Assembly (NCBI GenBank): GCA_035221665.1
Contig: CM069152.1
Coordinates: forward strand, 13,516,001 to 13,580,000
Length of the DNA: 64,000 nt
Source: Okamejei kenojei
Lineage: Eukaryota
Direction of reading: 5' to 3'
The position numbers were made by a program, and so were the translations under genes. Positions 1,522-64,000 of this stretch are shown here, one piece after another. The first letter of the stretch is position 1. Every line of letters starts with the position of its first letter. The notes beneath the pieces were generated by a model that was not told where the DNA came from, made no database searches, and was given only the letters and a program-made list of their open reading frames with translations.

Positions 1522-4500
1522 GTACTTACCCGCCTTTATTTATGCTCACTTCACCAACGAGTCAGATTGTCAATGGACATAAAGTGGAATCAGATTGTTG
1601 ATTATAAAAAGTGATGTGCGAAGTATTACGTTTTGGTAGAAATAATGAGAAGGGGAAGTATAAATTAAATGGCACAATTTAAAAATGGTGCAAAAAACAC
1701 TGAGAATGGAGAGTATATATGTACACAAATCTTTGAAGGAGGTAGAACAACTTGAAACGGTATTTAGGATCCTTGGCTTTATTGGTACAGGCATGGTTTA
1801 CGAAAACCAAGACGTTATGCTGAACCATTGTGTTTAACTCTGAGCACTAAAGGAAATATATCAGAGAACATTTGCCAGAATCGGTGCAAGCGAGAGTCTT
1901 CAGTTGTGTGGAAGGACACCCAAAGCTGAGATTGTTCTCCTCGGAGCAGTGAAGATTAAGGGATTTGGTAGACGTGAGAATCATGAATGGTTTTGATGGT
2001 GTAAGTAAGGGGAAACAGTTTCCAGTGGCGGGATAGATCAGCAAACAAAGGACACACATTTGAGGTAATTAGCAAAAGTATGAGAGAACACAGAGAAATA
2101 TTTTTAATACAGTAGATGTAATACAAATATGCTGCATTAAAAACAATAAAAGCAGATTCGTAGTTAGTTACATTCAAAAGAGAATTGGATAATTATTTGA
2201 CGTGCAACTATTTGCATACCTGAATGAACTGCTGAGTTACTCCAGCACTTTGTGCATTCAGTCTGAAGAAAGGTCCGGACACGAAATGTCACCTATCCAT
2301 GTTTTCCAGAAATGCTGCCTCACCTGTTGAATTACCCCAGCATTTTGTGTCTTTCTTTGTATACCTTTACATGAGCTGGTACAGGTATGATGGGCTGAAT
2401 TGTCATATATTTTTGCGTGTGTCATTCTGTGAAGTTACAGAAATAGACCGAGGAATGGTGTAAATAGACCAGAAAGGAATAGGGAGGAGCAATACCTTTA
2501 TGTTGAGAAATTAGATGATTGTAGATACCACGTTTAGCATAGACCGTCCATATTAAAAAGCACTTATTCTGGATTAGAAGTCCTCTTTCACTTCACGCTT
2601 GTTTACTCTTTAAGGGATCTGAATAGAGTCTAATTTAATTCTTGTTTATTTTTAACAGGTCCACAAATTTGTTGAGAAAAATCATGATCAAGTTCGACAA
2701 GACGTCATAGAATTGTTTGTGAACAGCAAAATAAAGGTGAGTTGGGAAAATGTCCTAAATTGATAGCTTCGACTCAGTCCCTAGCTTATGTTTGGCCTTT
2801 AACAGCTATTGTTTAAATTCATTGTTCCTTATTACGGCAAAGCTGCTAAATGGTTCACAAGGTTATCCTGGTCAATTGGTTCATGTCATGTACTGACAAA
2901 CCTGGGCTATTAATTTCTACAGACTCCTTCATATAGTGGAGTAACCTTATGAACAGAGTCTCAAATGGAGAAAGCCTTGAATTCTAATTGGAACCAAGTG
3001 CCTTCTCTGGTGGGAATGCTGGAAGTGACACTGAAGGAATGAATTCCATGAATGGGCTCTCCATCTGGAAGACATTGTGATATTCTATTAACATAACATT
3101 CCAAAACATTGATCAGTTAATATAATTCCTGTTGGGAATCTGTTAACTACCCACATACTCCTTAACCTACATTAGTCCGAACTATTCCGAGACCCAATGC
3201 AATTCCATGCTGTGATTTATTGTACAGATTTATAGCTAACTCCAACCCTTAAATGCAGCCTCAGGCCTATTGAAGGACTAAAATTAACATTTAGTTATTA
3301 CATCTAACCACAAGACACTAATATCCCAACTTCTTTCCGTAAATATTTTTGGACATTTTGCATAATTTGTTCTTAAGCACCATTGCTTCTTCAAATAGAC
3401 ATACCCTATTATGAAAATCTGTTTTTTGCCATAGGCAACTCTCAAAAATTCCTTGTCAAAATAAAATATGACAAGTAAAAGTGAATGAGGCAATGGGAAA
3501 CAAGAGCTAAGCAGTTACCAGTGAAATAAAAATTACAATACTTGTAAAAAGAGGAGCAATTTCCTTTGCATCCATATCCAAACATTAAGCATAAACATTA
3601 CCTCACCCACTATAATTATAATCGTACCACTAACTATAATCGTACCAACTACCCCATAATCTCCCACCCTCCTCATCCTAATTCATCACAGAACTCATGG
3701 GAACCATCAAAATTAACAACTGGATTAAATTATTTTAACAAATGAGTTAATTTCATGACAGAATGTATTTATTTTGTTTATTAGATTCTGACCAGTCTAT
3801 TCATGGGGCAAACCATGAAGATGATGTCAAATAAGAACAGTACTGTCAGCCGTAGGTATGCTCCCACTGTGGCAGCCAAATTCCAACAGTCTCTGATGGA
3901 ACTGGTGGAGAAGATGGAAAGGTCAGTTTGGGATATTAACATTGTATTTCCCTTACCTGTTCCAGAAATTACCCTCCAGCACCACCTTCTAACATCAATC
4001 CAGCACTAAATCTAACCAAACAATAGACCCTAACCTAACATTCCTTGGCTTTTCTGGTGGATATGGTAAACAGCAAAAGTCCATTGGTGTGATATGAAGA
4101 AGAGCTGAAAATTCTGCCTGAGCCTTGACATACAATATTATTTATAACAAAGACCAAAATAGATGAACACATTGGTCCGCTTACCTCTGTGGGTTCAAAC
4201 TGTGTTCGAATGACTGGTATGTTTGCCTATATAGCAAATCTCATTCATTATTTGATAATGTTCTGAACTATCTTTGAGATCTGATAAATGTGCACCTTTT
4301 AACACCTTTTTCAGAGTGGATCACTGCTTTGATAAACTAGGACCCTGGGAAGTGTTGTAGAACAGAGAACCCAGGAGAACAAGTACACTGTTCCTGACAG
4401 TGGAATCACAGGTAGACAGGGTGGTTGTGAAGGCTTTTGGCATGTGTTGGCTGTCAACAGTCAGGGCACTGAGTATAGATGTTATGCTGCAATTGGACAA

Positions 4501-7500
4501 GGCATTATTAAGGCCGTGCTTGATGTATAGTGTTCAGTTTTGGTTACGCTGTTTTAAGAAAATGCCATTAAGCTGGAAAGAGTGCAGAAAGGTTTCATGA
4601 GGATGTTGCCAGGACTTGAGCGACGGAGTTATAGGAAGATGTTATGTAGGCTAGCGCTATTCCTTGGATAGTAAGAGGCTGAGGATGATCTTATAGATGC
4701 CCATAAACCACAAGGGACACACATAGGATGAATGCATACAGGCTTTTTCTCAGGATAGCTGAATCAAGTACAAGAGGATATATGCTTTAAGGTGAGAGGG
4801 GAAAGATGTAATAGGAACCAGAGGAGCAACTTTTTCACAAAGAGGGTGGTACTTACAGCATATGGAACGAGTGCCAGAGGAAGTGATTGAGGTGGGTGCA
4901 AAAACAAAATGTAATAGGCATTTGGCCTGGCACATGGATAGAAAAGGTTTAGAGGGATATGGATCAAATGTGGACAAATGTACCAGTGGGCATCTTGGTT
5001 GGCATGGACTGAAGAGTGATTCCATGCTTTTTAACTTTATGACATAATGACTAATTAATATAATACATTCTGATTTTTCAGCTGCAATCCTTTCTTTGTT
5101 CGCTGCATCAAGCCAAATAACAAAAAGGTAAATCAAATTTAGGAGCTTGTTGACTTTGGGATCTAGAGTGCATTAATGCAGACATTTTGGCCTGGCATTT
5201 GGGATAGAATTAATAAACCATTTGGGACCAGGTATATTGCATTGTGGTTTAAGGATGCATTAAATGGACTAATAGAAGTAATGATCAAAACACAGAAATG
5301 CTGGAACTACTCAGCAGGTCTGGCGACTAAAGCGAAGAAGAAAACAGAGATATACTGTAAATTCAGGTGAATAACTTTTAAAAGTTCTGACGCTAAATAG
5401 CTCCACAAATGCTGCCTTGCCTTCTGAGTATTTCCAACATTGCTTAATATTTTAGGTTTGTAATAGAGGCGTTTGGGGTCTGGAGTGGTTTAAGTGACAA
5501 TGACTTTTACCTTTGTCAATTGATGGCAATCTCAATCAGGAGAATGCTTAACTAAGGTGCCAATGGTTATGCTTCACCATAGCAGTGAGTATTTTTCCTT
5601 TGTGCAGGAGCCTGAACTCTTTGAGGTTGATGTTGTCAGCTCACAATTGCGGTATTCTGGGATTCTAGAGACCATCCGGATTCGTAAGGAGGGCTATCCT
5701 GTGAGGATCACCTTTGATAATTTCATCAAGAGGTCAGTATAGGGTCCATTTGTAACAGGAGGGTTTAAAAAAAATGCAAATTGTGTTAATATTCATGATT
5801 TCTATTAGACTTGTGAAGATTTGGATTTACTTCATTATCTGAGAAGTTGCAAATGAAATTGAGCATTGCTCATCATTCTCAAACATCCACAGTTCTGATT
5901 TTAAAATGGAGGGAAGATAATTAAAGAAGCAGCTGATTCATGAACAAAATCTAAATCCAAGTCTTTCTTTCTATAAATAAAAACAGTGAATTAAGGAATC
6001 AAAAAAAATGTGTCATGGTTTGAAAAAAATGTACGTGAAAACCAAACCAAAGGAAGACCAAATTACTTCTATTTTACAGCATCCTCTGATTACCGGTTTT
6101 TAGTTTCGCTCTAGTCATTGTTACAGATGAATAAACTGCATTGATACTCAGTTGAGATGTGTAATACCAGTATTTTGTTACAGATACAAAATCTTATTGG
6201 GACTTACTAATCAAATAAAGGCAGATGGTGAAAACTGCATTGCCATTTTGAAACAGATTGTTCCTGTCAGCAGAGGAACATACAGCATAGGACTTACCAA
6301 GGTCTGTTCACAACTTCACTATTTAGCAAAGTCAAGTGGACTTCTGTGTTATTTTACATTTCTGTTCCTATAGAAGGGTCATAATTTTTTTTCTTTCCGA
6401 AAACGTTGATTTCTAGGGATTTTTTTTTCCCATTGTCCCCAAAACACCTTGATCTCTATTTTCTTTACGCCATTTTCACCACACAAATATATTGTGACCA
6501 CCAAACCATAATGTTTTATATGTTCTCCATATAAGAAACATCCCTAAAACCCTGCCTATCTAAGGAAATAAGATCAAAAAATATAATTCCATAGGTAATA
6601 ACTCTTGCTTGGCATATAGTTCCACTGAGGATTTTGAAGCTTTTTAAGATTATGTCTATTTTTCCATTGTGGTTCTGGGATTTTAATCCAGACCATCAAA
6701 TGGGAAACGTTTAGATGTTTCTAAACATTAGGCATTGAAAACTTAAATTAACACATAGTGGAGATTGCGGTGATGCTGCTGGAAGCTTCCTCATGAGCTT
6801 CAATAAGCTTTAATAAATGGGCGGCACGATGTTACAGTGGTAGAGTTGCTGCCTTACAGCACTTGCAGTGCCAGAGACCCGGGTTCGATCCTGACTACGG
6901 CTGCTGTCTATATGGAGTTTGTAAGTTCTCCCCCTGACTGCGTGGGTTTTCTCCGATATCTTCGGTTTCCTTCCACACTACAGGTTTGTAGGATAATTGA
7001 CTTGGAATAAATATAAATTGTCCCCAGTGTGTGTAGGATAGTGTTAATGTGCGGGGATCGCTGGTCAGTGAGGACTTGGTAGGCCAAAGGGCCTGTTTCT
7101 GTGCTGTATCTCTAAACTAAACTAAACTAAACTAAAAGCAGTGTACATTTAGCAATACGTGTAGAGTGACAAAATGCCATCTGATTTTACCTCAGCTTTT
7201 CATCAAGGAGAATTTGTACCACACTCTAGACAGTAAACGAGATGGCCTGATGCTCATGGCCTCTCTCACTCTGCAGCGATATGCCCGTGGATTCTTTGCC
7301 AGGAAACGTTATACAAAACTCCGGAGAACAATCATTCTGCTGCAGGCTACAGCTAGAGGCTACATGACCAGGTAAGAGTGAAACCCTGAATCTAAAAAGT
7401 AGAAGTTAATCTGATGTTAGAACTGAGAACCATAAACAATTGAGAGGAGAAATGCATGAATTGAAGTGCAGCCAAAAGCTTATTAAATGGCAAAGCAGTA

Positions 7501-10500
7501 ATGAAGGGCTGAATGGCCTGCTCTTGATTCTAATTGGTATTGAATTTCTGTAAGGGCCTAAGGAGTTTCTTCTTCTTGCGTATGGCATGCACAGCCTAAA
7601 GTTGTCAGACAACTTGTTCTATTTGATCTTATTTGATTGTGCATGCCGAGTTGATTGCATTTGTCGAAACAGGGCGGACCACGTGAAGGCTGCAATCTCC
7701 CACCCTGCCTAAGGAGCTGTGGTGCAGTCAGTGAATGCATCATAACCAGGCTGTGAGCACTGACACCTTCAGAGCATGAGGGTCTAAGGCGAATATTTTG
7801 CAATTGGATGACTGGTTGCAGTACAGTATGGACTCAAGTCAACCCACCTGTCCGCATGCAGTTTAATATCCATGCCTTCCCAGGATACAGATGAGCTTGG
7901 GCCAAGCCCACCCAGTTGTCTCCATGTTTCAGTGAGGTAGACCAGCAATGTTGTGAGTCCCGACATGCATGACAGAGCTCACAAATCATTCAGTCATACA
8001 TCAAGGGAATGGACATTTACATTAAGGCAAACAACGTTTCAGAGAATGAAGGAAACAGTAATAGCATTGTGTGGGTATTAAAAAAAAAAACAATATCCCT
8101 GGTGTAAAGGACCAGAAGTATTTAACACTCATCTGCAGCCCCTGCCATTAGACAGTATTATTGCCTTGCCCAAGGCAGTGAGGAGCAATAGAGAGGAAAG
8201 CACCGAGAGGTCATTAGTATTGGTGTTGGCATTGCTTTATTATTGTCACATGTACTGAGATGTAGGAAAGATTTTGTTTGCATGCATCCAAATAAATCAG
8301 ATAATATTATGCATGAATACAATTAAGCCATACACAAATGCAACAGGTAGAGCAAAGAGCATAATACCAGATTGCAAAATATAGCTTTCAGCATTGTAGT
8401 ATTACAGTACCAGAGGACTATAATGAAGCAGGTTGGAAGATTGAGCCTATACCCTAGCTTATGGGAGAACCATTCAGAAGTCTGATAACAGAGGGGAAGA
8501 AGCTGTTCCCGGGTCTGGTGGTACGTGCTTTCAAACTTTTGTATCTTCTGCCCGACAGGAGCAGGGAGAAGAGGGAATGACTGGGGTGAAAAAGGTCCTT
8601 GATTATGTTGGCTGCTTTTCCAAGGCAGCGTGAAGTGTAGATGGAGTCAATGGTGGGGCGTCTGGTCTGTGTGATGGATTGGGCTACATTCACAATTCTC
8701 TGCAATTTCTTGAGGTCTTGGGCAGAGCTGTTCCCAAACCAAGCTGCGATGCACCCGATAGTATGATTTCTACAGTGTATCTGTAGAAGTTGGTAAAAGT
8801 TGTTGCGGACAGGCCAAATGTCCGTAATCTCCTGATGAAGTAAAGGTGATGCTGTGCTTTGCTGGCCATAGCTTCAGTGTGATTGTTTCAGGCCAAATTG
8901 TTGACAATATTTACGAAAAGAACCATTTCAACTTCGGCACCATTAATGCAGTTCTTAGTTTTGCGAAGACTGAGCAGTAGTTCCCAGGAACTAATGAACT
9001 ACCAAAACAGTGCTATTATTTTAGTTTAGAGACACAACGTGGAAACAGGCCCTTCGGCTCACTGAGTCCATGCCGACCATCAATCACCCTACACTAGTTC
9101 TATGTTATCCCACTTTCGAACCTACACACTAGGAACAATTTACAGAAACCAACCAACCTACAAACCTGCACATCTTTAGAGTGTGGGAAGAAACCGGAGC
9201 TCCCAGAGAAAATCTATGCAGTCACAGGAAGAACGTGCAAACTCCACACAAACAGCACCGTAGTTACGACTCTGGCGTTATGAGGTAGTAGCTCTACCAC
9301 TGCGCCCCACCTTTTGGAGTTTTGTGAAATCTGTTGCGAGAATGAAGGGAGAAAGAATGTCCTTCAAATCTTTTCTTCACTTTGTTTGTCTTTACAGGAA
9401 AAAATTCCAAAAGTATAAGGAAAGCTTGATTAAAGTCCGATCCGTTGTTCTCATGTTTACAAATCGTAGGAGATTCCTCAGGGTGAGTTGGAACACTGGG
9501 TGGTCAAAGATGCCCAGTCTAAGCCTTGTCTATCGTTTCCTCCTTTGTCTGGTTCACGTGCACATGGTCTATTTTGTCTGCATCTTTCCATTTCACCTGA
9601 TCCATGTCTACGGTTCACCTGGTTAGATTCCACCAGGACCATCTCATCTAGCGCCACTTATCTACCTGGACAAATCCCGTCTGATCCATTTAATTTGCAT
9701 CCACTTGTTTTATTTTCCAATCTATCCCTGAATTCCTAATCTACTGGGTCCAAGTACATCCAATCTACTTGTTCTATGTTTACCTGATCTCCTTGATCTG
9801 TATCCACTTGACCAATGTCCACCTAGTCAGTGTCCACTTGGTATGAATCTTCTTGGTTTAATTGGTCTCCTTCCACCAAATCAATTAAATATGCCTGGTC
9901 GGTGTCTATTCCATTTGGTTTGTGTCCATCTGCTCTCCATGTTTGCTGATGGTATTCATCTTCTCTGTGGTTGAGGTGGATGTAAACGATTACATGTCAT
10001 TATCTGAAGAAGAGATGGAGTGCAGCCAACTTAGTTTGGACAAACCAGTCATTCATTTTATTATTGGTTCAATTTGCAGTGCATAAAATGGCTGTTATAT
10101 TTGGCTTATATAAAAAACAGAAAATGCTGGAAATACTCAGCAAGTCAGGCTGCATCTATGAAAAGAGTAACAGAGCTAACATTTCAGGCCCTTTGTCAGA
10201 ACTTACTAATGAGATCAAGGATCCTTTATCTGAACTCACTTTCTCTGGTTTACTTCAAATTCACTAAGTGGATCTTGCAACTAGAGCAAGTAAACACATA
10301 GCCTTTTCTCCAGAATTTGTACAAATTGAGTGGTGCGAGCTCAGATAAATTGTGATCAATTATGTGACCGTGAAACATCGTCAAATGTTTCTGAAACATG
10401 GATGGCAGACTACTTTCCCAGAAACATTTTTTTTTCTTCTTTTTGTAGATCCGAGAACAAAATCGGGAGAGGATTGAGATGGTAACAGACATCCTTTCAT

Positions 10501-13500
10501 ATATTTTTTTTAATTGTGTGCTTCCTTCGTCCTATCACTGGAGTACAATCTAACACACTAGTCTAATCCTTTGCACAGGGGTACTGAATCACACATTGGT
10601 CCCATCATCTGGATTATGGCATCTGGAGATGCAATGTAAACCAACATCTTTGACAGTACCACACACTCTACCTCCACGAAGGATAAGGGAATTCAGATGC
10701 ATGAATCTCACCACTTGGATGTTCACCTCTAGGTCACTGAGATTCCTGACTTAGAACTGTATCAGAATGTCCCCATAACTGCCGAGACTAAGCACTGGAA
10801 GTTCCAAAAGGCAGCTCACCACCACCTTCCTAAGGTCAATTAATAATAATTGTTGGCGGCTCCCTAACCTAACAAAGAAAATAAAATACAATTCCTAAAC
10901 CATGTAGTTCCAACTCAGTATTCTAACCTACAAATCGCAACTTTAATCCTAATTCACCAGATTCCTCATGTTTATCCTCATCCTTCGTTTGTCATATCAC
11001 AAATGTTACAGATGTTTTTGGCTCTCGATTTAATCGTTTTTGTTTCCATAATGAGACATACGGCATGCTGCCATTATCACTTGAAAGAGAATTTAATTGT
11101 AAAAATTACATTTAAACTCAGGAACAAACAATGAGAGAGGTGGTGAATGTTGCTCATCTGGATATTCCAGCAGAGTTGGCTGCCTTACTCCAAGCTGCAG
11201 CAGGTAAACATTTCATCTGGATACTCAATTTTTCAGCCATTGTTCTCTCAGTCTAATGCTTGTTTGTATATCAACATTTCTTACGTTACCTCCTTCTGTT
11301 ACTCTGCCTTACTCATGGAAATATTACAGCAGTAAATAAGTGTGGTATGCTTTTCAAAACAGCAAGATTGCATGCATTATATTAAGAAAGCATGTACAGT
11401 AACTGGAAATTAGGCCATTAATTTTCCTCCCACTATTTCTGGCTGCTATTCCTCAATAAGACCACCCTCAATCACACTGCTACTGATTTTCCATAATCCA
11501 CCCTGAACTCTGGCAGATGATCTTGCTCCGATCACCCTACCAGTTATTCTGCTCCAAACTTTCCACTTACAGTCTTAAGCTCATCAGGGGAACTCCACCA
11601 ACTGCAACTTCCTGTGCACACCGCACAATATCATAAGATCATAAGTGATAGGAGTAGAATTAAGCCATTTGGCCCATCAAATCTACTCCGCCATTCAATC
11701 ATGGCTGATCTATCTCTCCTAACCCCATTCTCCTGCCTTCTCCTCATAACCTCTGACACATTTATCCCTTCTGTTCCAGAAACTCCCCCCACCCCTGGGA
11801 TTTCCTCCCCATTGAGTTCCATGTTTGTTTTTGGCCTTCGACTTACTCAATCTCCCCAAGTAAGATAACCCCTCATCTGAGCAATCACTCTAATGATTTG
11901 ATACTGACAGCTGACAGACTAATAAGTCAGTGATCTCCACTTCTTTCACAAATTTCAATTCGAGAAATCGAAAAGCCCCTTTCAGGAAGAAAGCTGTTGA
12001 CGTTGGATGTTTTTTTTTTTTGCAGTTGGGAAAGAAACCCACGCAGATTGCATTATCCAGACAGAAATTCCAAAATTGCTTTCAGAGCAACAACTATCAA
12101 TGCCTCTTGATATCAACAACTACCCTTTCTCCAGATTCGTATGGACTCACTTCAGGGTAGGTTTGTGTGGTTTGTTGGTTTTGTGTTACGTGAATGGGCT
12201 ATCCTTCTGTTGTCCTCACTGGTGTCTTCTTTTGTCCAGAACCATTTATTTGGTATGTTGACCTCTCCACTGGAAGAAGCATTGACCCAAGCAGAAGAGG
12301 ACATAACTCATGAAGCTGCTACAGTCTTCAAGCTGGTAAGGTGCAAGGCATAGAACTGTTTGTGAAGCATGTAACCGTACATTCCAATACTTGGAATGTA
12401 GCCAATTAGTGTCATTGCCTATTTCCAGGTCTCTACTACAGTATTCTGAAACAGATGCCTGAATGAGTCCCCTGCAGTTTTCCTCTAGCATTTTGTGTCC
12501 ATCTATGATGATGATAATGTTCTTTTTCAGATACTACGATTCATGGGGGACCCACATCTGAATGGAACTCAAGAAATCCTCTTTGGTAATTACATAGCCC
12601 AAATAGGGTTGGCCAACTCCAACCTACGCAATGAAATCCTCGCTCAAATAGCCAATCAAGTATGGAGAAACATCAATGATAAGAATGCAGAGAGAGGCTG
12701 GCTCTTAATGGCTACATGCCTCAGTAGCTTTGCTCCTTCTTCTAAGATGGACAAGTACCTTCTGAAGTGAGTATTTTGTGAAGTCGGTCAGTTCAAGCTA
12801 ATCTAAAAATGTGGAATTAGATGTAAACCCATGAAAGACTGACCAAATCGGTAAAATGATTCTCTCTCCAGCCCATTCTCCAATTACACTGACCTCTTGC
12901 AGCCCCACTAATCACTCACATGCCCTTTCCTTTCAAGTACTGCTCCGCCTCATCCCCTATTCCTTCCACTTTCCAATTCTACTGGTACCCTTCCTCAGAT
13001 TTGCTTGGTCCACTGATAAATGCTGTGTTATCAGGATCTGCAGAAACTGGAAATCTTACTGTCGCGTAAACAGGAATGGGACAAGGCTTGGAGACACATC
13101 CTGCCACTGTTGCCTTAAACCATGAAGGCCGTATCTAAAACACGAGGCCAAGATGAAAATGCATGATTTACATCCTTCTCTCTCTCCTTTTATTCAACAG
13201 GTTTGTGTCGGATCATGGTTTCAATGGGTTTAAGTCTGTATGTCAGCACAAGTTATTGCAGGCAATGCATAAAGCCAAGTATGGCCCTGAGGGAGCCAGA
13301 GGCTATCCACCCTCCCTGCTGGAGTGGACAGGCAACAAGAGGAAGGCTAACATTGCAATAGAGGTATCCAGTTTTGATGGTGAGCAAAGATTCTCCCAAT
13401 TGGATGGACTCACTTCATCGTGTCAAATGCTACTCATGCAGCAACTAAGAATGGGGCAGCACAGCGTTCAACTGGATTGCGCATGTCTGAGGCCATCCAG

Positions 13501-16500
13501 TCTATAATCTATTATCCCATTAACTCCATGCCCCTATAGACTTCAGGTTCTATCCCACTTTCCCTTCAATCTTTGAGTCACTTTATATCCCACCTAATCA
13601 AAACTCGCTCTTACATCTTCTCTCACATCATTTAATATCATCTCCTGTTCCTTGCAATAACCCTGTATCCCTTTATTCCCCATATTCCTTAAAATTCCAT
13701 CCAATCTAATCCCATAGGAGATACTTCCCTCAGCCTTTGATATTTTATTATCTACCATCAGTTTTTTGCCTCATTGCACATAGCTTTTAATATCCTTCCT
13801 TTTCTCATTCTTCGTAGCTTTTAATATCCCTTCAATGCCTTTAAATACCACTTCCACCCATTTCCATTCACTCCCTGCACCATTTAAGGTCAGATCAATC
13901 TAATCCACTTTACCCTGCAACTAACACACCATTTAATATCTTACTGGACTAAACTCTCCACCTCTCTCTCTCTCTCCACCCCTTTAATATTAAAACCAGT
14001 ACAATCCTTCTTTTCATTCCCCATATCCTTTAATATTCCTCACAACAAATCCTCAGTCAAACACGGTATAATATCCCATCATGTCAGGTAACATCAGAAG
14101 TTAGGGGCAGAGGGGGGAAAACAGAATCTAAGAAAGTTTCAGGTCAGTGATCCTTTCGCAGAAAGCCATTTACAGTGTATAGATATATGATAAGGGAAGT
14201 TTAAAATTGCAGGAAGGAGGTGGGATGGAACAAACAGAAGGAATGTCTGGGATTAAGCGTAAAAATATTGGCCAGATAATTATCATTTTAATGCACTGGC
14301 AGTTAGAGACAGATGAGAAAATAAATAAAGGAGCAGAGTCACACACCCTTGGGGAAAAAAAATCAGGTGGTGTGAAATGTTTTAATTCAGTAGTTTCATG
14401 GGAACAATGTACTCAGATGGAAGATGATATGCTGTTTCTCATGCTTATATTAGGTGTAGGAGGCCAAAGACAGAGTGATTGCAGTGGGAGTGGGACCTTA
14501 TTTTCAGTTTTTGTTTTGGATTTTTGGCATCTCCATTCAATAGTTTAGTTTAGTTGAGTTAGTTTAGTTTATTGTCACGTATACCGAGGTAGAGTGAAAA
14601 GCTTTTGTTGCGTGCTATCCAGTCAGCGAAAAGACATTACATGATTGCATTTAATGTTTTATGTGTCATTCCTAACTGTCACTGTATGTCATGTTGTCAC
14701 TTGCGGGCGGAGCACCAAGGCAAATTCCTTGTATGTGAATACTTGGCCAATAAACGTATTCATTCATTCATTCATATTAGAACCATTTACAGTGTATAGA
14801 TATATGATAAGGGAATAATGTTTAGCACAAGGAAAAGCCAGCAAAGCCCGATCAAGGATAGTCTGAGGGTCACCAATGAGGTAGATAATATCCCATTTAC
14901 TCTAATTCCCAGTTCCCTCTCACTCCTTAGGTCAGCCCAATTAATATGGCCAATAATATTCCACCCAGTCTGTTTACATCCTATCTATTTCAACCAATTA
15001 AATCACTGTAAATCCTTTGCCCTCCACCTCCTTTAATATCTAATCCAATCTAATCTCCTCCCTCAGTGCCCATGTTTTTAACATGTCACCAATCTCTGAC
15101 TCCTCATATCCGTTAATCTCCACAACAATCTAATCCCACTATCCCTTCATTCCCCATCTCCTTTAATATCCCTGCTTTAAGATCCTTTTCCTTAAAAAAA
15201 AAACACTCCTGTGAACCAGTTTTTGCACATTCATTTCTTCTTGAATGAGTTACATCAAGTTCTCAGCACTCTTGCCAGGCACTCCACAAGAAATTCTTCT
15301 CCTAAATCTTGATAACGAACCCCCTGCGTGAAAACATTGTCCGATAACCATTTCTTTGACACATTGATGATTAATTTATACTGAAACCTTGAAGTGGACA
15401 TTATTTGTCTCTGCACTACATCAATTAACATCCTTCAGGATTTTTATTAAATCTAAATGAAGTATATAAGATGAGAACAAATTGACAACAAATTATTATT
15501 TCTCTATTTATATTTGCAGGCAAGAATTTTCTGTGCCCTGTGAACTCATGGACTACAGGAGAAGAATTGGGACAAGATCTCCTGCGGCACAGGTAATCTT
15601 AGAGTCAGCAGAAGATTTATAAGCTTCAAGTAAGACGTTGATGGTTTAAAAAAATGTCTAATGGGTCTTAATCACCAAGAAATTCAATTTGTAACTCAAG
15701 GGTTATGTACACTGGCAATTTCTGTGAAAAAATATTAGGTTAATAAAAGTCAGAGATTTAATACATGGGTTGCAAAGTTAATAACTTTCTTTCCAATAGA
15801 TCCTCCATCACCGCGTTAGTGAATGGAGATACCTGATTCTGTGTAGAGACTTTCAGCAATGTGCAACCAACATTTTCACAATTGCTATCCACATGTGCAT
15901 GGCCTACAGATGATGTGGATTAAGCACACACTGAAGCTACATTCATCGTCTTGCAGGGCCAGTTGCAGCATGCAACCTATCTTATTACTTTGCAGGCCAT
16001 CAAGTCAAGTACTTGAAACTTATTTTACATAGGTCCTCTTTTGACAGCTGTCCCTTTGGTCCCTTTGCCCTTTCCCCTCTCTTGTCATGATCCGACATCC
16101 TCAATCTGATTGCAAGCCAAGCTCTTCCATGTTGCTGAACGCGCACCTCATTTTTTCCTCAACATAATTTCCCAACAAGATCAACTAGTTCCCTGTTTTC
16201 CCAATGACAGATAACCCAATTATCCCCAATCAACCTGTTGGTGTAATGGTTAAGGTACTAAACTAGTATTTCCAAAAAAAGGCACAAATGCTGGAGGTAG
16301 TTCAGCATGTCAGGCAGCATCCTTGGAGAACATGGATAGGTGACATTTCGGGTTGGGATCTGACACGAAACGTCATCAATCCATGTTCTCCAGAGATGCT
16401 GCTTGACCCACTGAGTTACTCCAGCATTTTGTGTCTTTCTTTGGTAAAGCAGCATCTGCAGTTCCTTGTTTCTACTATTTAAAGATAGCGGAGTCAAAGG

Positions 16501-52500: not shown

Positions 52501-55500
52501 GGTGATGGTAAGTGTTGACTTTTTCCCCGACGTGAGGTGGACGTGCATTCACTTCCAGGAATCGTTGGAGTGTGAATTTATTCCCTCGTGCATGTGTGCA
52601 TTCGACGTATGTGTGTGCTGCTTCCTCACAGCTCGCTTACTGTCCTCTTGATTATTTATGACTGTCCTTAGACCGTTGCTACGGATGTATAGTCAGAAAG
52701 AAGGTGATATACCTGGAGGAATTAAGAAAACACATTCCTGATTTTGGTGGGTGTAAAGCTTAACAGTTTTGCGTTGTGATTGCTTGTTTGTGTGCTAGTC
52801 ATTCCTCCCACTTTCTGTAGGTGAGGATTATTTGTATTTTAATAGTGTGGGGGACTCCTCCACTGATTGCAATAATGGAGATGTCTGCTCCTCAATTTCA
52901 ATCCCGCACACAGGGTTTGTTTGGTCCAGTGTGGGTGATGAAGATCTAGTGTGCAATGTCCTGAGATTTTTTTGTCCAGTCAGATGGAGTCCAGATTCCC
53001 GCACTTTGAAAGTGAATGTGCCAACTGGGAAGAGGTTTGTTCTACCCTCTGTGGCCAGTTTGCTAATTGGAAATATATTGAGAATCTCCAACATCTCTGA
53101 GTCTAGGAGATGAGGATGAAAACTGGACAAAAACATCAGAAAACCATGTTTTTTGAAACACTATTACTTTATTGAGGTACATCATCGTTGTGTTAATGTC
53201 CACATCCCTATGTTGCTTCTTCATCATTTGTTATTTCTAAGCTACTCCATCATAACATATTACTCCACCATCTTACTGTGTTTGTTACTTTTCCATATAA
53301 CATGGTTACTTTTCCATTTCATAGCATTACTCAATCTCAATGTGTGTTTTTGTCCTTCTCACATTGTTCATTCTCCAGTTTCAATGTTACTCATTTATCT
53401 TGAGTTGAGGCTTCAGTTGGGACAACCTTGATCATATTGAATGCACAGCCAGGCTTGAAGGGTCTGATTTAAGTAAACATGGTCTACCTCTTTGTTTTCT
53501 TGTGTTATCTTGGACTGGTGTGTGCATGGTTGCTGTGTTTAATGCATTCTGATGTTGTTCAATTTTAAACCTAGCCCATTATATATTCACACCCTTCAGA
53601 CTCAATTAGGGTCATTCTTTTGTTGGTGCAGGGATCTTGGCATCACTCCCGAGTTCACCACTTATAGATAATTTCTAATTACCCTTGAGAAGGTAGCAGT
53701 GAACCTCCTTCTTGAAATACTGCAGTACCATCAGTGAAGACACGCCCACTGTGTTATTGAAAAGGAGTTTCAAGAATTAGACCCAGAAACAGTGACGATT
53801 GTTTCAAACAACATTGAAGGATCAGCTCCATTGATAGTTTTGGAATTACATGTAGACCAGACCAGACAAAAATCTTCACCCACCCCAAATACCCAAAGGC
53901 TGATCATGACCCAAATGGATTTCAACGGCAATCTGGAAATTGATGATTATTAGTACTGGTGGCAGATTCTTTTTTAAAGATTCAGAATTATTAACTGAAT
54001 TTAACTTCCGCAGCTACGATGGTTGGATTTGAACACTGGTCTCTAGATTGGCACTCAAGCCTTTATAATACTACTCCAGCAATTTCACACTGCAGGGCCA
54101 CTGACCCTGTCATTGTTCTTTAGAGGTGACATTCAAGGCAAAATAACCCATCTACGCTAGTCCCATTTGCCTGTATTTGACTGGTATCTAAACGTGAGAA
54201 ACATAAGGAACTGCAGATGCTAGAATCTTGAGCAAAACACAAAGTATTGGAGGGCTTGGCAGGTCAGTCAGGATCTGAGGAGGGAATGGACAGGTGCCTT
54301 TTTTGGTCAGGACCCTTCAGCAGACCTTCCTTGTCCATGTACCTGTCCAAATGTCTTTAAAATGTTGTTATAATACTTGCCTCAATCATTTCCCCTGGCA
54401 GTTCGTCCATATGCATGCTACCCTATATATGGAAATGTTGCCCTTCAGGTTCCTATTAAATCTTTTCCCTATCTTATTAAACCTACACATCCTAATTTTT
54501 GATTAGGGGAGGGGGGAAGCTTTGTGCATTCACCCTAACTTTGTCCCACATAAATTTATACACCTCCATAAGATTACTCCCACAGACATGCGGTCCACCT
54601 GTTGGAGGGTCCCCAAGCTTCCCCAACCATGACCACCTTGATGCTCATAAGCCATAGGTGCGGGTTAGTAATTGAATTGCTGGTTGAAGGGATGCTCCCC
54701 TGAGGTGGATCTGTGAGCAGGTACCATGCAGGTAAAATGACAGCCAGCTAGTGGATGTATTTTAAAAGAGAGTTTGTAAGAGTTTGGACAGGGGGTTTTG
54801 TCTGTCCCGTCCCTCTTTCCTCTTTACACGAGCTACCTTCCCTTGCACTTTTGATCTAAAACGTTGATAATTTTAATACATCCACAGATGCTGCTCAACC
54901 TGCTGAGTTGCTCAAGCAGATTGTTTGTTGCTCCAGATTGCAGCATCTGCAATCTCTCATGTCTGCATCACCTTTACATTTGCGACCTGCGTTGAAGAGT
55001 GCTGAACAGAGCAATAGATCTTGAGCAGTAAACTTTCTGCACACTCCAAAGACGTACAGGTTGTAGGTTGATTCGGTAAAGTTGTAAATTGTTCCTCAAG
55101 TGTAGGATAATGCTAGTTACTGTATAGGGTGATTGCTGGTCGGCATAGACTTGGTGGGCCGAAGGGCCTGTTTCCGCATTGTAACTCTAATGTCTAATAA
55201 CTGATGGGCACTGCAGAGGCTGGAATGTACCCAAGCCAAAGAGGACAAGATATTGTGTTGCTTTGTTTCATTTACTATATTTACTTTAAGCTAAACAGTT
55301 TAGTTTAGTTTAGGGATACAGTGTGGAAACAAGCCCTTCGGCCCACAGAGTATGTGCCAACCAGCAATCACCCATATATCAGTTCCATCCTACACACTGG
55401 GTACAATTTGCAGAAGCCAATTAAACTACAAACCTACATACCCTTGCACTATGGGAGGAAAAAACCCAGGTGGTCGTAAGAAGAATGTACAAACTCTGTA

Positions 55501-58500
55501 CAGCCAACGCCCGTAGTCAGAATCAAACCCGGGTCTCTGGCACTGTAAGGCAGCAACTCTACTACTGTGCCACTGTGCCGGCCCAGCAGAACATGAAAAT
55601 GAGAAGTTGACAAAATGAAGGGCAGGACCTAGTGACCAAAAATCATGGGTTCTATGGGACGGGCTAATTCAATGGAGCATGTTTGTTGTCACATACTGTA
55701 CAAATTCATCTGGAAGTGGCAATCTGCATCAGCTTTGAGCAGGTTGGGAGTGTGGTCAGTGCCCTTGCAGGCATGAGGTAGCTTGTGGAACTGGAGGACC
55801 TCATCATGTTGCTGCAGCTTCTGATGGAAGACTAACTAGGTTTCCAGCACTTGCATCCCACTCGTAGAGCTCAGCACTCATCATCTGAATGAACGTGACT
55901 GAGATGAATGAAGAGGCATGCACCGCCTACAAAAAACAGTGTTAAAATAATGAACCTTTGCTTGTTTGGACAGGATGGAAGTTTGGAGCTTTCCACGGCA
56001 GGTCTGGGCTGGTTCCTCTAGAATATGTGCAGCCCGTGGCTGCTCCAGATTTTATCCACCTGAGCACAGACAAGAAGGAAGAACCAAAGGACAAGAAGGG
56101 CAAAGTGGCAGCTTCCTCTTCAGCCCTAGTGGCAGCTGCTGTGGGATCAACGGCAGCCGCTGAGGAACTTGACAGGAAAACAGAGGTGCAGAACGGCATT
56201 CCTTTATTCTGTACTGTTGTTCTTGGTAATATTACATTGACCATTTCATGGAGAGGAGCAATCTCTTCAGCAACATGCGGTTGGACGTGCAAGGGCAAGG
56301 CAATGCATAAAGTTATCAATCTGCTATAGTGAATGTAACATAGATGATTAAATGGCTTGTGGTTGCAAACGTTTCCCTCAGCTCCATCATACTCAGTCAC
56401 CCCATTTGAGGATCTGAAACTTATATTTATAAACAGTCATTTATTTTTAGGCGAATTACAGCAAAATGTCCAAGATGTCCAAAGTAGAAAATTATAGCAG
56501 CAATCTGTTAATGAAGAACAGCCAGGGATTTTCAAACTGAAAACAATCTTTGCTTCTGAGTTATCTGTTACAGTATGTTCTACAATATAAGTTATCTATT
56601 ACAGTACAGTCTTACAGTACTTGAATTCACTACATAAGGGAGATGTAGAATCCACCAGGTTTCCTGCTTCAGACCATGTTCAGTGGCCCTTTTAAAAAGT
56701 ATGGACGTCAGGTTAAGATGAGCTGTGACTGATTTCCACATAAAATACTCTATCCCCTTGAACATAATGAAACGCCCAGAGGCATTATCAACAAGATTGG
56801 TTAACAGTGCATCATTATTAGCAGGAGTGAATTCTATGGTTCAATGGTACTTTATTGTCCCATGTCACCTAGATATAGTAATATTCTTTATTCAGCAAAA
56901 TCATACTATACATAAACACAATCTACAAACACATTACTACAAAAGTGCAATGATTGTAATGTAAGAATAGTAGACTTCACTGGTGTGCAGAGAATTGTGC
57001 ATTGTCAGTAACAGGGAGATTGGGTGGAAACATAGTCAGTTCTGGCACAAGTGGAAAGTCTGATGAAGGGTCTCTACCCGAAACATCGCCCATTCCTTCT
57101 CTCCAGAGATGCTGCCTCACCTGTCGAATTACTCCAGCATTTTGTGTCAACTTGGAAAGATTGGTGCCATGGTCAGCTGGAATGGATCATTCAGCAGAAT
57201 TCTTACTGACTCACGAGGCTCTGGATTAAACAGACTTGTGCCTATCATTGTTTTAATCTAACTGCAGATTTCATGGAATGCATGACTTTGAATCTTTTCT
57301 GCAGGCCTCCCCTCCAGTCGATGAATTTGTGGACAGTATTCCTGAATATGGCATTCAGGATAGCCAATACACCATGATAGAATTTGCAAATAAATACTTC
57401 CGCCAGTCACCTAAGTTTAAAAGGTGAGTGAATAACAAGTATTGATCAGTGAACTTTCAGTAGCACCAACATGCAGCCTTGTGTCCCCACCACACAGATT
57501 ATTCCACAGATCCCAAGTGTGCCTATTTTGCTTTTGTGCTTTGTCTCCTTTTCTAGCATAAACCTGGTTAAGATCTCTCACTCAGCATTGTCCTAATGCT
57601 TTCTCTGCAATCTCTAAACCTGTTCTCATTTGCTCAGCAAATCTTGCTCAATATTCCTGGCTGTGGGATTTACTTTGTGGAGTTTGCTTGTGCTCTCCCT
57701 CTCTCCATCTGTCTCTTACATGTACCACTGTCATCTGACGTTAACTAGGTTGAAAACACTATTAGATGAGAAAGTAATTTTTACTTACTCTGTCAGATTA
57801 CCCTCAAAATTTTGGATAAGTGAATTCTTCCAGAGCACCAAGAAAGAATCTAGATTACAGATTGTCAGATGTACACAGTTGGTTGCATAGCACTTTTTTG
57901 AGGGTATGTAACAAATGTTTAATGGATAGAAATGTATTAAATAGATTGCAAAATCATTTAGGAACAATTTATTAAAACCAGCCACAAAGGTTTCTCAGGA
58001 AAATTATCACCTCGCTATAAATCAGCAATGAAGAATGACTTACATTTCTGTAGTCCTTTCCCAACATGATTTAAAGCAGTGAAAGTAATTTTGGATTACA
58101 GTAATCTTTCTAATGTAGTAAAATCATTATTAGATGTGAAATATTAACTGAGGCAGTGACCAGATATAATAAATTATTGGAGTTACTCTAACTCTGTGAG
58201 AGACTGACTTGTTTAGCAATTTTGATTACCAATCTGTGTGATTCACAATGTTTAGAGCTTACATGATCTCACGTCTGCATGAGGTTGGTTGAGTCAATCT
58301 CCTTCCTTCCCTGGACACACTTCTGAAGTAGCAAATCCTGGTGTTGCCTGTTTCTTTGGATCTTGAGGTCTGAAAATAATGCAGCTTTGATGAGCATTCC
58401 CTCCCACCTTTGCCGAATTCTTTCCAATGAAAGAACACTGATCGCACAGTTTAGCTTCTAGCATCCAGTCTCTGCATTAAGGCAACTTTCTGCTAAAAAG

Positions 58501-61500
58501 TATATAAACTCGATAGTCTAGCAATGTCCTATTTTCCTTGCTATTCTATAACAATATTAATCTAGGTGATGCACAACAGTACAAATTCAAGTCGGTGTTG
58601 TGGTATAAGCTTGCATCTCTAGAAGGGGGAAGCCTCTCCGTCCAAGAAAGACCTCAAGAAATTGCGGAGAAATGTAGACGCAGTCCAGACCATCACAGAA
58701 GAAGAAGGGGTTTGACCCGAAACGTTGCCTATTTCCTTCGCTCCAGAAATGTTGCCTCACCCGCTGAGTTTCTCCAGCATTTTTGTCCACCTTCAATTTT
58801 CCATCATCTGCATTTCCTTCTTAAACACAAATCAACCTCCCTTCCATTGACTCATTTTACACCCCATGCTGCCTCGGCAAGGCCATCAGCATAATCAAGG
58901 ACGAGGTACAGAAGTGTGAAAAAGCACACCTCCAGATTCAGGGACAGTTTCTTCCCAGCTATTATCAGGCAACTGAACCATTCTATCAACAACTAGCTAC
59001 TGTCTACCTTATTGGAGACCCTCAGATTATCTTTAATTGGACTTTATCTTGCACCAAATGATATTTCCCTGATCATGTATCTGTACACTGTGGATGGCTC
59101 AATTATCATCATGTATGGTCCTTCCACTAACTGGTCAGCACGCTACAGAAGAGTTCACTACCTCAGTGCGGGTGATAATGGACTAAACTAGACTAAACCA
59201 GGGAAAAATAAAATATGAAGCAATAGATCATTAATTACTCAGAAACATAATAAATGGAAAATAAAAACTACGCATGTGTAAAATGCCCTAAAATACTGTT
59301 CTTTGAATATTTTGTTTTTGCAGTGAATCTAACAAAGAGAAATCTAAAAAATCAAAAGATCAGAAAGATCTGTCAGAGCTGGTGAAGTACACCAAGGTAA
59401 GTGTTGTCTGGATCTGTTGTCTGCTCATTGTGATGCCATAGCTAGCAGCTGCTAGTCAATAACAATATATGAAAGGCCCTGGTTATAGGATCTCACTGAT
59501 GAAGGGTGATGCTGGTTGACAAAGCAGGGAGGCTGTACAGCACAGCACTCTCAGGTAGCCTATAATTAATGTTCAGAAACTTTCAAGTACAATTCTACAA
59601 TACTTTTTTTTGCATCGGTTAATGATGGCATTACAACCCCAGAGCAATAGAATCATAGAGACATAGCATGGAAACAGACCCTTCAGCCCACCAACTCTGC
59701 ACCAATTATCAAACACACACTAACAAGAATCTTTCATTAAGCCGAGTACTCTGTACTCCATTGTCGATTAACCCGATTTTGGGCAGAAGCTACAAAAGTG
59801 TGAATGTACTCACCACCAGATTGAGGAACAGCTTCTTCCCCTCTGATAATAATCAGACTACTGAATGGTCCTCCAGCTAGGGTGTAGTCCGGAAGTGGCG
59901 GCGCTGCGTGGCAGCTGCGGCTCACCTGCAGTCCATCTGTTTTATTTCTTTTTTTTGTCTTTTTGTGTCTGTTTTAGTTAGAATTTTTGGTTTATTAGGT
60001 TGTGTTTGTGTATGGGGGGGAGGGGGAGGGTGGGAGAAACAAGGTTTTAGTCTCTCCCTTCGGGGGGATGCGACCTTTTCTTGTCGTGTCCCCCGTCATC
60101 GTCTCCGTCTGTGCTGAGGCCTAATGGCGGAGGCCTAATGGCGGAGCTGGCGGCCTCGGAGCTGTGGCGAGCGTTCAGAGCTCCAGTGTTCCAGCGGCGG
60201 CAGCGGCCCGGCTTCAGAACTCCGGTGCTCCAGCGACGTTCCAGCGGTGCTCCAACCCGGCTTCAGAGCTCCGGTGCTCCAGCGGCGTTCCAGTGGTGCT
60301 CCAACAGCGGCCCGGCTTCAGAGCTCCGGTGCTCCAGCAGTTGCTCCAGCGGTGCTCAAGCGGCGGCCCGGCTTCAGAGCTCCGGCCCTCCAGCGGTGCT
60401 CCAACGGTGGCCCGGCTTCAGAGCTCCAGTGCTCCAGCAGTTGCTCCAGTGGTGCTCCAACGGTGGCTCGGCTTCAGAGCTCCAGTGCTCCAGCAGTTGC
60501 TCCAGCGGTGCTCCAGCGGTGGTCCAGCTTCAGAGCTCCGGTGCTCCAGCAGTTGGTCCAGCGGTGCTCCAGCGGCGGCCCGGCTTCAGAGCTCCGGCGC
60601 TCCAGCGTTCCAGCGGGAGACCATGATTCAGAGCTGTGGCAGTGTTCCAGCAATCCGGCGATGGTGGTGGTGGCAGCCCGGCATCGGAGGCTCGGCCGCG
60701 GGCCTAGTGGACGATAACATCGGAGGCCTGGATCGCCTCAGTGCAGAGGGAGAACAAGTAGGGAAGAAGACAAACACTTTAAGACCTTTGCCTTCCACCA
60801 CAGTGAGGAAGTGCCTGGTGAACTCACTGTGGTGGATGTAAAATATGTGTTTATTGTGTGTTTTGTTTTAATTTATTATATGTTATGACTTCAAGGTAAC
60901 AATATTTCGTTCAGACCGATAGGTCTGAATGACAATAAAGGAATCTAATCTAATCTAATCTAATCTAATCTAGTCCCGATCTTCCAACCTACCTCCTTGC
61001 AGACATTGGACTTTTTCTCTGTAACTGTAATGGTACATTGCTTAACACTATATTCTGCACTTTAGTATTTTTCTTTTTGCATTACCTATTGTACTTGTGT
61101 GTGGCTTGATTGTATTGATGTATATAGTAGTATGATTCGATTTGACTGGATAGCACACAAATATAAACTTTTCACTGGATCTCGGTTCCCGTGATAATAA
61201 TAAACTAATGCCTATACCAATGATTTGTCCGTGAGTGAATGGAAACGCCTCCGATTCAGAATTCTCTCCAACATATGGGTCCCTACCAAAATATTCATGG
61301 GTTGATACTGCCAGAAAGGAGCACTGCAAATGAAATGGCATCATTCTATGTAAAGGTGATTCATGCTAAAAGTTGTCAGGTCAATTTTTTAGAAGGATGA
61401 CCAAGGAAACTGTGGTCATTGTATTTCAAAACCGAAAAGATTATTTTGTGATTACATGCATAATACTTTTTTATGTATAAAAGTATTGTATGAGACAGAG

Positions 61501-63326: not shown

Positions 63327-63540
63327 GTAATGCCTTAGGCATAAGAGTGCCTACTTGTGCGTAGGTTGGTAGAGGTGTTTCGTGTGTATGTGTATGTGAA
63401 AGCTAATAAGTGGAACAGTGGATTTTATAACACCACGATTTAGTAGTCCTGATTGCAAAGATGAGTATGTCAATTTAACTTCATCTTTCGATGATAATTG
63501 TACATATAATAAGGTGACATCCTTAGCCTGCTGAACAGAC

Positions 63541-63641
63541 TAGTCTGAAGAAGGGTCTTGACCCAAAACGTCACCCATTTCTTCTCTCCAGAGATGCTGC
63601 CTGTCCTGCTGAATTACTCCAGCATTTTGTGTCTATCTTCT
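63541..63641 (+). mobile_element. Penelope-derived element
   Basis: CTGAAGAAGGGTCTTGACCCAAAACGTC followed by the family body. Confidence 0.75.
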
Positions 63642-64000
63642 GTCATTCAATGATCCTGGTTAATTGCCTCAGCTCGACACTCCTGCCCGATCCGCACTAT
63701 CTTTCTATATTAGCCTTAAATATATCTAACTACTCAGTATTCACAGCACCAGGAACAGAGACTTCCAAAGATTTGCAAACCTCTCAGAAATAATTTTGTT
63801 CTTCAGTCTTAAATTGATGTTCTATTATACTGAGACTACATCTCCTACTAAGGAAGATATTCATTTCTATTGTCAAGTCCTCTGAGAATCGTTCAGGTTT
63901 GCCTACTTAATAAAAGTATGTGTGTCAGGGACGTGCGGACAGGGAAGGCAATGAAAATAGCTGTTAAGAAAAGTAAAGAAAAATAATAATAAAGTAAAAT

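Follow-up and report, generated by a model that had tools for sequence, protein, structure and literature searches.

What are the scattered copies of a short repeat with a hammerhead ribozyme-like core in a 64,000-nucleotide stretch of the skate Okamejei kenojei (assembly GCA_035221665.1, contig CM069152.1, positions 13,516,001 to 13,580,000; hereafter the window), and does the ribozyme have any part in their spread? An earlier note on this DNA had proposed a high-copy, non-autonomous retroposon derived from Penelope. Our analysis indicates that the copies very probably correspond to the final ~95 or ~130 bp in the pseudo-long terminal repeat (pLTR) of a recently active Penelope-like element (PLE) of Neptune type, an identification drawn from sequence comparison. 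The best explanation overall is that they are insertions of the pLTR end without the open reading frame (ORF), probably made by the element's own reverse transcriptase (RT) and endonuclease (EN) from uncut RNA. Penelope pLTR fragments with minimal hammerheads have already been described across animals, and the family itself is ordinary.

The window contains 33 fragments by a profile built from eight of its copies (threshold E ≤ 0.01; arms of inverted pairs counted singly), and five base shuffles used as a control contain none. The dispersed family announced earlier is thus borne out, and our count, which includes fragments and pair arms, exceeds the 15–20 copies given before. Our wider sample of 864 kb comprised the window, 200 kb of neighbouring DNA and 60 spaced 10-kb stretches; every spaced stretch contained at least one family match (60/60), and together they held 320 matches covering 30,638 bp, or 5.1% of 600 kb. 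Extrapolated to the genome size of 2.76 Gb, this corresponds to ~1.5 million fragments (bootstrap 1.26–1.69 million; pair arms counted separately). Two exact patterns had 13,948 and 22,302 matches, with none for the reversed controls, and the family was also present in assembled contigs from several organisms (8 runs; 3 of 24 listed runs recorded as RNA). Within the window, strands were balanced (14 plus, 14 minus), with no sign, at low power, that sense-oriented copies are depleted within the host gene, and tblastn found no ORF remnants of the parent element there.

The parent element was recognized from what lies upstream of the repeat. The end of a GIY-YIG ORF was found at the expected upstream place in 7 of 30 pattern loci, with RT motifs and many long open frames beyond it, and several upstream variants of the pLTR reach an ORF end. 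One locus, L111, holds a complete element, in which a target duplication of 12–13 bp encloses pLTR, ORF and pLTR; identity between the two pLTRs is 99.8% across 495 bp, and both carry the hammerhead motif. The Penelope origin put forward in the earlier note is therefore upheld by both the longer copies and this full-length element. From its first ATG the L111 ORF encodes 1185 amino acids, with DKG and YIDD motifs, a CX4CxxC linker (residue 1052) and C-terminal CxxC..H..H endonuclease residues. Its protein had 996 relatives, of which most among those listed have RVT_1 and some GIY-YIG, the closest named relative being from bamboo shark (69% identity). Its Pfam matches count against the assignment, since both RVT_1 (E 4.5e-6) and GIY-YIG (E 0.004) fall below the curated cut-offs. 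Neptune and Nematis elements are recognized by a CX2-5CxxC linker that joins RT and EN (PMC8557442; here and below, publications cited by accession are drawn on for the portions covered), and the parent element would be of Neptune type, its clade being judged by this linker motif alone. Because the RT-EN part is at least 97.9% identical to L111 in 12 of 19 other long loci, the family has spread recently. The short copies are colinear with the pLTRs of ORF-bearing elements, and the youngest short sequence is that of the L111 pLTR.

Two further features of the elements were observed in passing. On small contigs, duplicated clusters of NACHT/NLR-type immune genes enclose the element copies at L061-L066 and L078, which have multiplied together with those clusters. 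At L129:8073-8408 and 9323-9659 there are short tandem arrays expanded from ~54 bp of pLTR sequence that lies downstream of the hammerhead; the core is absent from these arrays.

Numbering from the first core base (C3) as +1, which places the predicted cut after +28, the 3' ends of 30 young copies fell at two points ~35 nt apart: 18 at +90 to +95 and 7 at +126 to +128, with 5 uncalled owing to indels. PLEs bearing an endonuclease (EN+) are known to have an optional tail of 30–40 bp, often at one end only, which matches these two 3' ends. Neighbouring copies were mostly inverted, as the 438 matches in 864 kb included 84 head-to-head, 11 tail-to-tail and 13 tandem neighbours, and by this test the family is not a tandem retrozyme. 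Among the 67 head-to-head pairs with both arms classed, 55 joined a long and a short arm, against an expectation of one half (p 5e-8); priming at two sites and on two strands fits these end counts. Target duplications of at least 9 bp flanked 15 of 83 solo copies (controls 1/83) and 20 of 84 head-to-head pairs (controls 1/84). Among young copies selected because they begin at -3, duplications lay close to both ends in 9/30 and 17/30, plus 8 of 13 inverted pairs. Since target duplications flank solo copies, pairs and young copies alike, we regard these stubs as real insertions. Nested insertion into its own kind also occurs: at L030, a young stub that bears a short target duplication has entered an older copy at its stop codon.

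At the 5' end, the copies pile up just ahead of the core. Patterns that all ended at +46 on the 3' side gave 29,158 exact matches for a start at +11, 22,302 at +1, 11,276 at -10 and 10,197 at -20, and so a retention per ten bases of 76%, 51% and 90% going upstream; the loss was 49% over +1 to -10 versus 10% over the next ten bases. With the last interval as background, ~44% of the young copies that extend as far as the core terminate no more than ten bases upstream of it. These counts mix truncation, mutation and subfamily differences, so copies were also inspected directly. In a first inspection, 16 of 30 young copies ended at -2 to -9. A cut-site-anchored set of 30 loci, which overlaps the first and includes both arms of some pairs (a point against its weight), had 21 starts at -7 to +5, 8 far upstream and one at +13, and 30 copies from the 864-kb sample had 14 starts at -5 to +3, 8 far upstream and 8 at +6 to +22. 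None of the 60 copies inspected in these last two sets started at the cut site (+29), and we reject the idea that the stubs originate there. For 178 of 264 core-starting copies of all subfamilies, the DNA upstream gave no match better than chance, and the sequence 5' of short copies resembled flanking DNA, with a pyrimidine fraction of 0.51 versus 0.74 in extended copies. Because the 5' ends accumulate ahead of the core and never at the cut site among the copies inspected, the template was likely uncut RNA, in agreement with the normal insertion of Anolis hammerhead mutants (PMC11167929).

The hammerhead itself is mostly decayed in this family. The order CTGA(A/T)GA...GAAA was confirmed at all five places reported before, the minus-strand first core bases lying at 23868 and 43602, and a structure descriptor gave 76 matches in 864 kb versus 5 in reversed sequence, with an extra base before stem II in 70 of the 76. 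Five window copies passed the descriptor (23868, 25462, 26734, 43602 and 57060), of which the minus-strand one at 25462 was absent from the earlier list, while that at 2263 failed through two stem II mismatches. The stem III palindrome is gone at 23868 (AUGU) and 57060 (ACAU), and AUAU at 26734 would most simply reflect two CpG changes, such that of the five cores held to be intact only 43602 retains the whole consensus, including ACGU. The suggested scan with hammerhead models gave a divided answer, as the descriptor succeeded and Rfam did not: no hammerhead family was among its 10 matches in the window at E ≤ 10, and its matches to microRNA families were spurious, arising from the inverted pair 42753..42951.

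In form, the motif fits the published minimal type I hammerhead of PLEs, in which a base between 9 and 10.1, the pair G10.1-C11.1 and a palindrome at 15.2-16.2 recur and most single motifs are attributed to truncated PLEs (PMC4209133). The extra A, once entered as a caveat, is a listed feature of these hammerheads and loses its force. The catalytic boxes, the extra base 9b, G10.1-C11.1, a palindromic stem III and a non-G cut base were all found in young copies and most subfamily majorities. The short stem I of about 2 bp holds for the young subfamilies, as in the D. virilis variant, and not for the oldest group, in which helix I has 4 bp. No stem I could be drawn by eye from the upstream sequence for a type III arrangement cut upstream of the core, and this alternative was rejected. 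One or two CCCTAA/CCCTGA words stand just 5' of the hammerhead in two subfamilies (L111:6381-6400, minus strand; extended copies); they resemble the reverse telomeric repeats beside the hammerheads of endonuclease-less PLEs, and may be due to chance or be branch-point-like.

Conservation of the motif was assessed in 263 copies sorted into eight groups, with mean divergence of about 5–28%. Between group majorities, one of 11 core positions differed (a CpG), compared with 2 of 4 in the loop, 9 of 16 in the spacer and 12 of 42 downstream. The expectation that the core would be more conserved than its flanks between subfamilies thus held against the spacer (p 0.018) and failed against the downstream part (p 0.26). 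Stem II, for which covariation had been proposed as a check, showed one-sided changes only (U-A to U-G, 19 copies); stem I changed from U-A to U-G in 44 copies and from G-C to U-A on both sides in seven copies of the oldest group. These patterns lend modest support to selection on the hammerhead in source elements. In inserted copies ribozyme function seems unlikely, because the core, stem II and cut base were kept in just 54 of 263 and non-CpG decay within groups was the same in the core (0.113) as downstream (0.118). Folding of seven copies gave z scores of -1.4 to +1.2, a stability that is not unusual. Small PLE hammerheads reportedly cleave as dimers, a finding ascribed to Lunse et al. For the present sequence, the hammerhead-competent dimer was 7 kcal/mol less favorable than the most stable two-strand structure, which agrees with the reported dependence of the Anolis hammerhead on protein (PMC11167929).

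These results would be consistent with the following sequence of events. On the model of the Anolis element (PMC11167929), the Neptune-type element's protein would nick both target strands, and reverse transcription would start inside the RNA at two points, about +93 and +128. Most weakly inferred is the step that follows: if such priming took place at the 5' pLTR of a transcript beginning at an initiator-like YCAGT directly ahead of the core, copying would run off the 5' end of the RNA and leave a stub. If the RNA started at that A, stem I would begin at the first transcribed bases and the run-off lengths would be as seen. We give this run-off step a chance just short of even. In full, the stubs might be a strong-stop-like short PLE product, reverse transcribed from the 5' pLTR off a capped RNA start at the first base of stem I and often integrated on both target strands from two start sites, a proposal we make tentatively. 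The hammerhead would then likely matter only in source elements, probably with the help of protein, and be a passenger in the stubs.

An RNA start at an initiator-like site just ahead of the core may well explain the pile-up, and the evidence runs in both directions. The bases at the pile-up read YCAGTY, which fits the general initiator consensus. Non-C bases before AGT (n = 1,994) comprised 899 G, 703 A and 392 T, with G at 45% versus 26% expected, an excess of the kind that a copied cap would leave. The Penelope promoter is internal, with a start within the pLTR (PMC2377424). Several points speak against such a start. The contig runs revealed no transcription start, strand or splice joint, and starts cannot be read from contigs; 24% of exact matches were already lost over +11 to +1; the 5' ends spread over some 12 nt (-7 to +5), with a second cluster at +3; and the YCAG at the pile-up can also be read as a 3' splice acceptor. 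A cap-like extra-G signature is weak and confounded by inverted arms, one or two added bases being present in 5 of 9 duplication-bounded G cases versus 2 of 17 A cases (p 0.03). In D. virilis, moreover, 46 nt separate the transcription start from a downstream intron of 75 nt whose end lies at helix I, and the start is thus not at the motif (PMC2377424, PMC4209133).

The main competitor to run-off concerns this last step only, and attributes the 5' pile-up to an RT stop or joining hot spot within a longer RNA, at the edge of a protein-bound hammerhead or at factors on a 3' splice acceptor (CTRAC...CAG) before stem I; we hold it to be a real possibility, at somewhat less than even chance. The spread of the ends over ~12 nt agrees with it. 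So does the CAG that almost every one of the 40 extended copies has at -4 to -2, in most cases preceded at a distance of a few bases by a CTRAC-like word across upstream variants, and so does the D. virilis intron that ends at helix I (PMC4209133). The absence of a common 5' exon before short copies, most of which lack any upstream match above chance, argues against it, and no acceptor-type joint was present among the joints listed from the eight contig runs, which are possibly DNA. The branch-like word also lies unusually close to the AG, which counts against a splice acceptor. A broader alternative is that the stubs form a self-propagating, non-autonomous family comparable to a short interspersed element (SINE), with its own initiator, internal promoter and RT start sites, and mobilized in trans by the Penelope protein. 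Points in its favor are the defined ends, the target duplications, the great excess over ORF-bearing copies, the sufficiency of pLTR sequences alone for trans movement in Adineta (PMC3846280) and the internal Penelope promoter (PMC2377424). We nevertheless consider it unlikely. The youngest short sequence is identical to the pLTR that ORF-bearing copies carry, roughly half of the exact matches extend further upstream, an ORF end is reached by several upstream variants, and no lineage made up of stubs only came to light, with no tree built to look for one. Of the retroposon first proposed for this locus, the high copy number therefore stands and the distinct family is not supported.

Two other origins appear very improbable. 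In one, the copies would be active retrozyme-like modules, cut by the hammerhead, circularised and re-inserted; tandem retrozymes have been reported in one chondrichthyan genome (bioRxiv 10.64898/2026.07.22.740005), the core is free of non-CpG change across all eight subfamily majorities while loop and spacer vary, and one stem I pair changed on both sides in the oldest group. Set against this are the lack of cut-site starts, the rarity of tandem relative to head-to-head neighbours, a core conserved no better than the downstream part, the unfavorable competent dimer and the Anolis mutants that insert normally in vitro (PMC11167929). In the other, the short copies would be solo pLTRs left by deletion or recombination of longer insertions, an explanation given for duplication-less solo pLTRs in Adineta (PMC3846280) and one that would accommodate the many old copies without a duplication (68/83 below 9 bp). 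It is hard to reconcile with young stubs that carry target duplications close to both ends, and with stubs far shorter than the 495-bp L111 pLTR. Insertion of pLTR ends by the PLE machinery from uncut RNA thus remains our preferred explanation.

The copies within the window illustrate most of these features. Those assessed with the descriptor include a short plus-strand copy at 2260-2362 (core at 2263, stem II broken; also found by profile), with a 31-bp partial duplicate just 5' that extends the feature to 2224..2362; a long solo copy with tail on the minus strand (23737..23871), with core at 23868, UUCG loop, lost stem III palindrome and an 11-bp target duplication; a minus-strand copy at 25328..25465, with core and stem II at 25462 and stem III ACAU; and a pair at 26545..26835, seen by profile and descriptor, whose long arm (26545-26658, minus) and short arm (26732-26835, plus; core 26734, stem III AUAU) are separated by a 74-bp gap. 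The long solo copy on the minus strand at 43470..43605 has its core at 43602, UUCG loop, ACGU, the only whole minimal hammerhead of the window and a 12-bp target duplication, and a short plus-strand copy at 57057..57159 has its core at 57060, stem II intact and stem III ACAU.

The remaining copies were located by profile. Head-to-head pairs, with arms on both strands, occupy 16268..16472 (short arm minus, long arm plus, both cut within the hammerhead), 16918..17055 (old), 21581..21762 (with a 9-bp candidate target duplication) and 42753..42951 (long arm minus, short arm plus, with an 11-bp target duplication). Plus-strand copies comprise a short copy with decayed core (25146..25245), a long copy with decayed core (40462..40598), an old copy (54853..54953), a long copy without the first core bases (58701..58829) and a short copy that has lost G12 (63542..63645), as well as a decayed 3' fragment adjoining the MyTH4 exon described below (12454..12511), a 3' fragment including the tail (32490..32555) and a fragment of the tail (37921..37967). 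On the minus strand are old-subfamily copies at 10090..10202 (part of stem II deleted), 42399..42511 and 43219..43344, a long copy that reaches ~60 bp upstream into the pyrimidine-rich pLTR and has lost G12 (41548..41745), a long copy with decayed core (45889..46029), a short copy (46733..46831) and an older long copy (54204..54325). Old fragments at 5291..5441 lie on both strands (5291-5324, minus; 5400-5441, plus).

The host gene is marked by a plus-strand exon at 12588..12764 that encodes the MyTH4 domain of an unconventional myosin (Pfam PF00784, E 6.5e-17; matches to myosin VII chains); we take the gene to be myosin XV. A weak Pfam match to an SH3 piece was found near 55970 (E 0.027), and as this piece and the MyTH4 exon flank most copies, the intronic placement claimed for them is plausible. 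Other repeats share these introns. A second abundant repeat, with a TTAG-rich start and a small UUCG hairpin, occurs at 287-561, 6835-7131, 9016-9193, 22992-23079, 29103-29266, 44506-44692, 45010-45088 and 55300-55461, and is presumably a tRNA-derived elasmobranch SINE or a CR1/L2 3' end; a third is dispersed at 14561-14869, 29419-29600, 34586-34694 and 50692-50873, with some copies 84–93% alike. Decayed RT fragments of long interspersed elements, which we assume to be CR1-like and L2/Rex-like, lie in introns at 34989-35363 (+), 36612-36914 (+) and 8454-8873 (-). A GC-rich tandem array at 60164-60665, with units of 44–56 bp, leaves three frames open for ~190–240 codons and is probably non-coding.

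The integration mode of PLEs and the role of their hammerheads are open questions, for which this family is a valuable test system: it is young, ORFs of its parent are open, and the ends of near-identical insertions can be counted by the tens of thousands. The end counts argue against insertion of hammerhead-cut RNA. If the run-off reading were true, about one twentieth of the genome would be the record of one aborted step, and the stubs would map the transcription start, both RT start sites and two-strand priming, from a template not cut by the hammerhead. At ~5% of the sampled DNA the family also bears on repeat annotation, as its inverted pairs produce false matches to microRNA families and many decayed motifs are to be expected in the output of ribozyme scans. 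In our judgement, the family is probably already catalogued in Repbase / Dfam.

Relative to known systems, the motif shares with the PLE hammerheads of Cervera and De la Peña (2014; PMC4209133) the CUGANGA and GAAA boxes, the extra base, the lack of loop III and the position in the pLTR. It differs in its helices, as helix I has 2 bp here, as in D. virilis, versus 4–5 bp in Schistosoma families, and helix II has 4 bp versus 6–8 bp; the copy number is far above the 4,000–9,000 motifs of coelacanth and Xenopus (PMC4209133). Two of the three supplement files of that study contained no shark or skate terms. We found no description in the literature of this family in skates, nor of a fixed 5' end, with the supplements of PMC4209133 covered in part and those of bioRxiv 10.64898/2026.07.22.740005 not at all, either of which may list chondrichthyan motifs. 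Animal non-LTR (long terminal repeat) retrozymes (bioRxiv 10.64898/2026.07.22.740005) are likewise short, non-coding and derived from PLE pLTRs, with a type I hammerhead, and dispersed monomers of them exist; their defining trait is a tandem arrangement in which every unit has a hammerhead, whereas neighbours here are mostly inverted and cut-site starts are lacking.

The Poseidon element PAc of Anolis (PMC11167929) resembles the present family in its two internal RT start sites that define a tail, in the cutting and extension of both target strands, in a hammerhead dispensable for insertion and in the absence of RNA ends at the cut site. It belongs to another clade, its ORF starts inside the hammerhead whereas the first ATG here lies ~160 nt downstream of the core, and the portions of PMC11167929 covered make no mention of genomic copies with a fixed 5' end. 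With EN+ Neptune-type PLEs (PMC8557442, PMC3846280) the element shares a single ORF for RT and GIY-YIG, the linker, partial-tandem pLTRs and 5' truncation, as well as a 5'-truncated copy in inverted orientation, the 30–40-bp tail at one end and target duplications. The L111 ORF, at 1185 amino acids, has a long proline-rich N-terminal part, compared with 650–1,100 amino acids in most relatives among the matches listed. The skate family differs from these EN+ Neptune-type elements in that its insertions are for the most part stubs that fall short of the pLTR length and whose 5' end has a preferred position.

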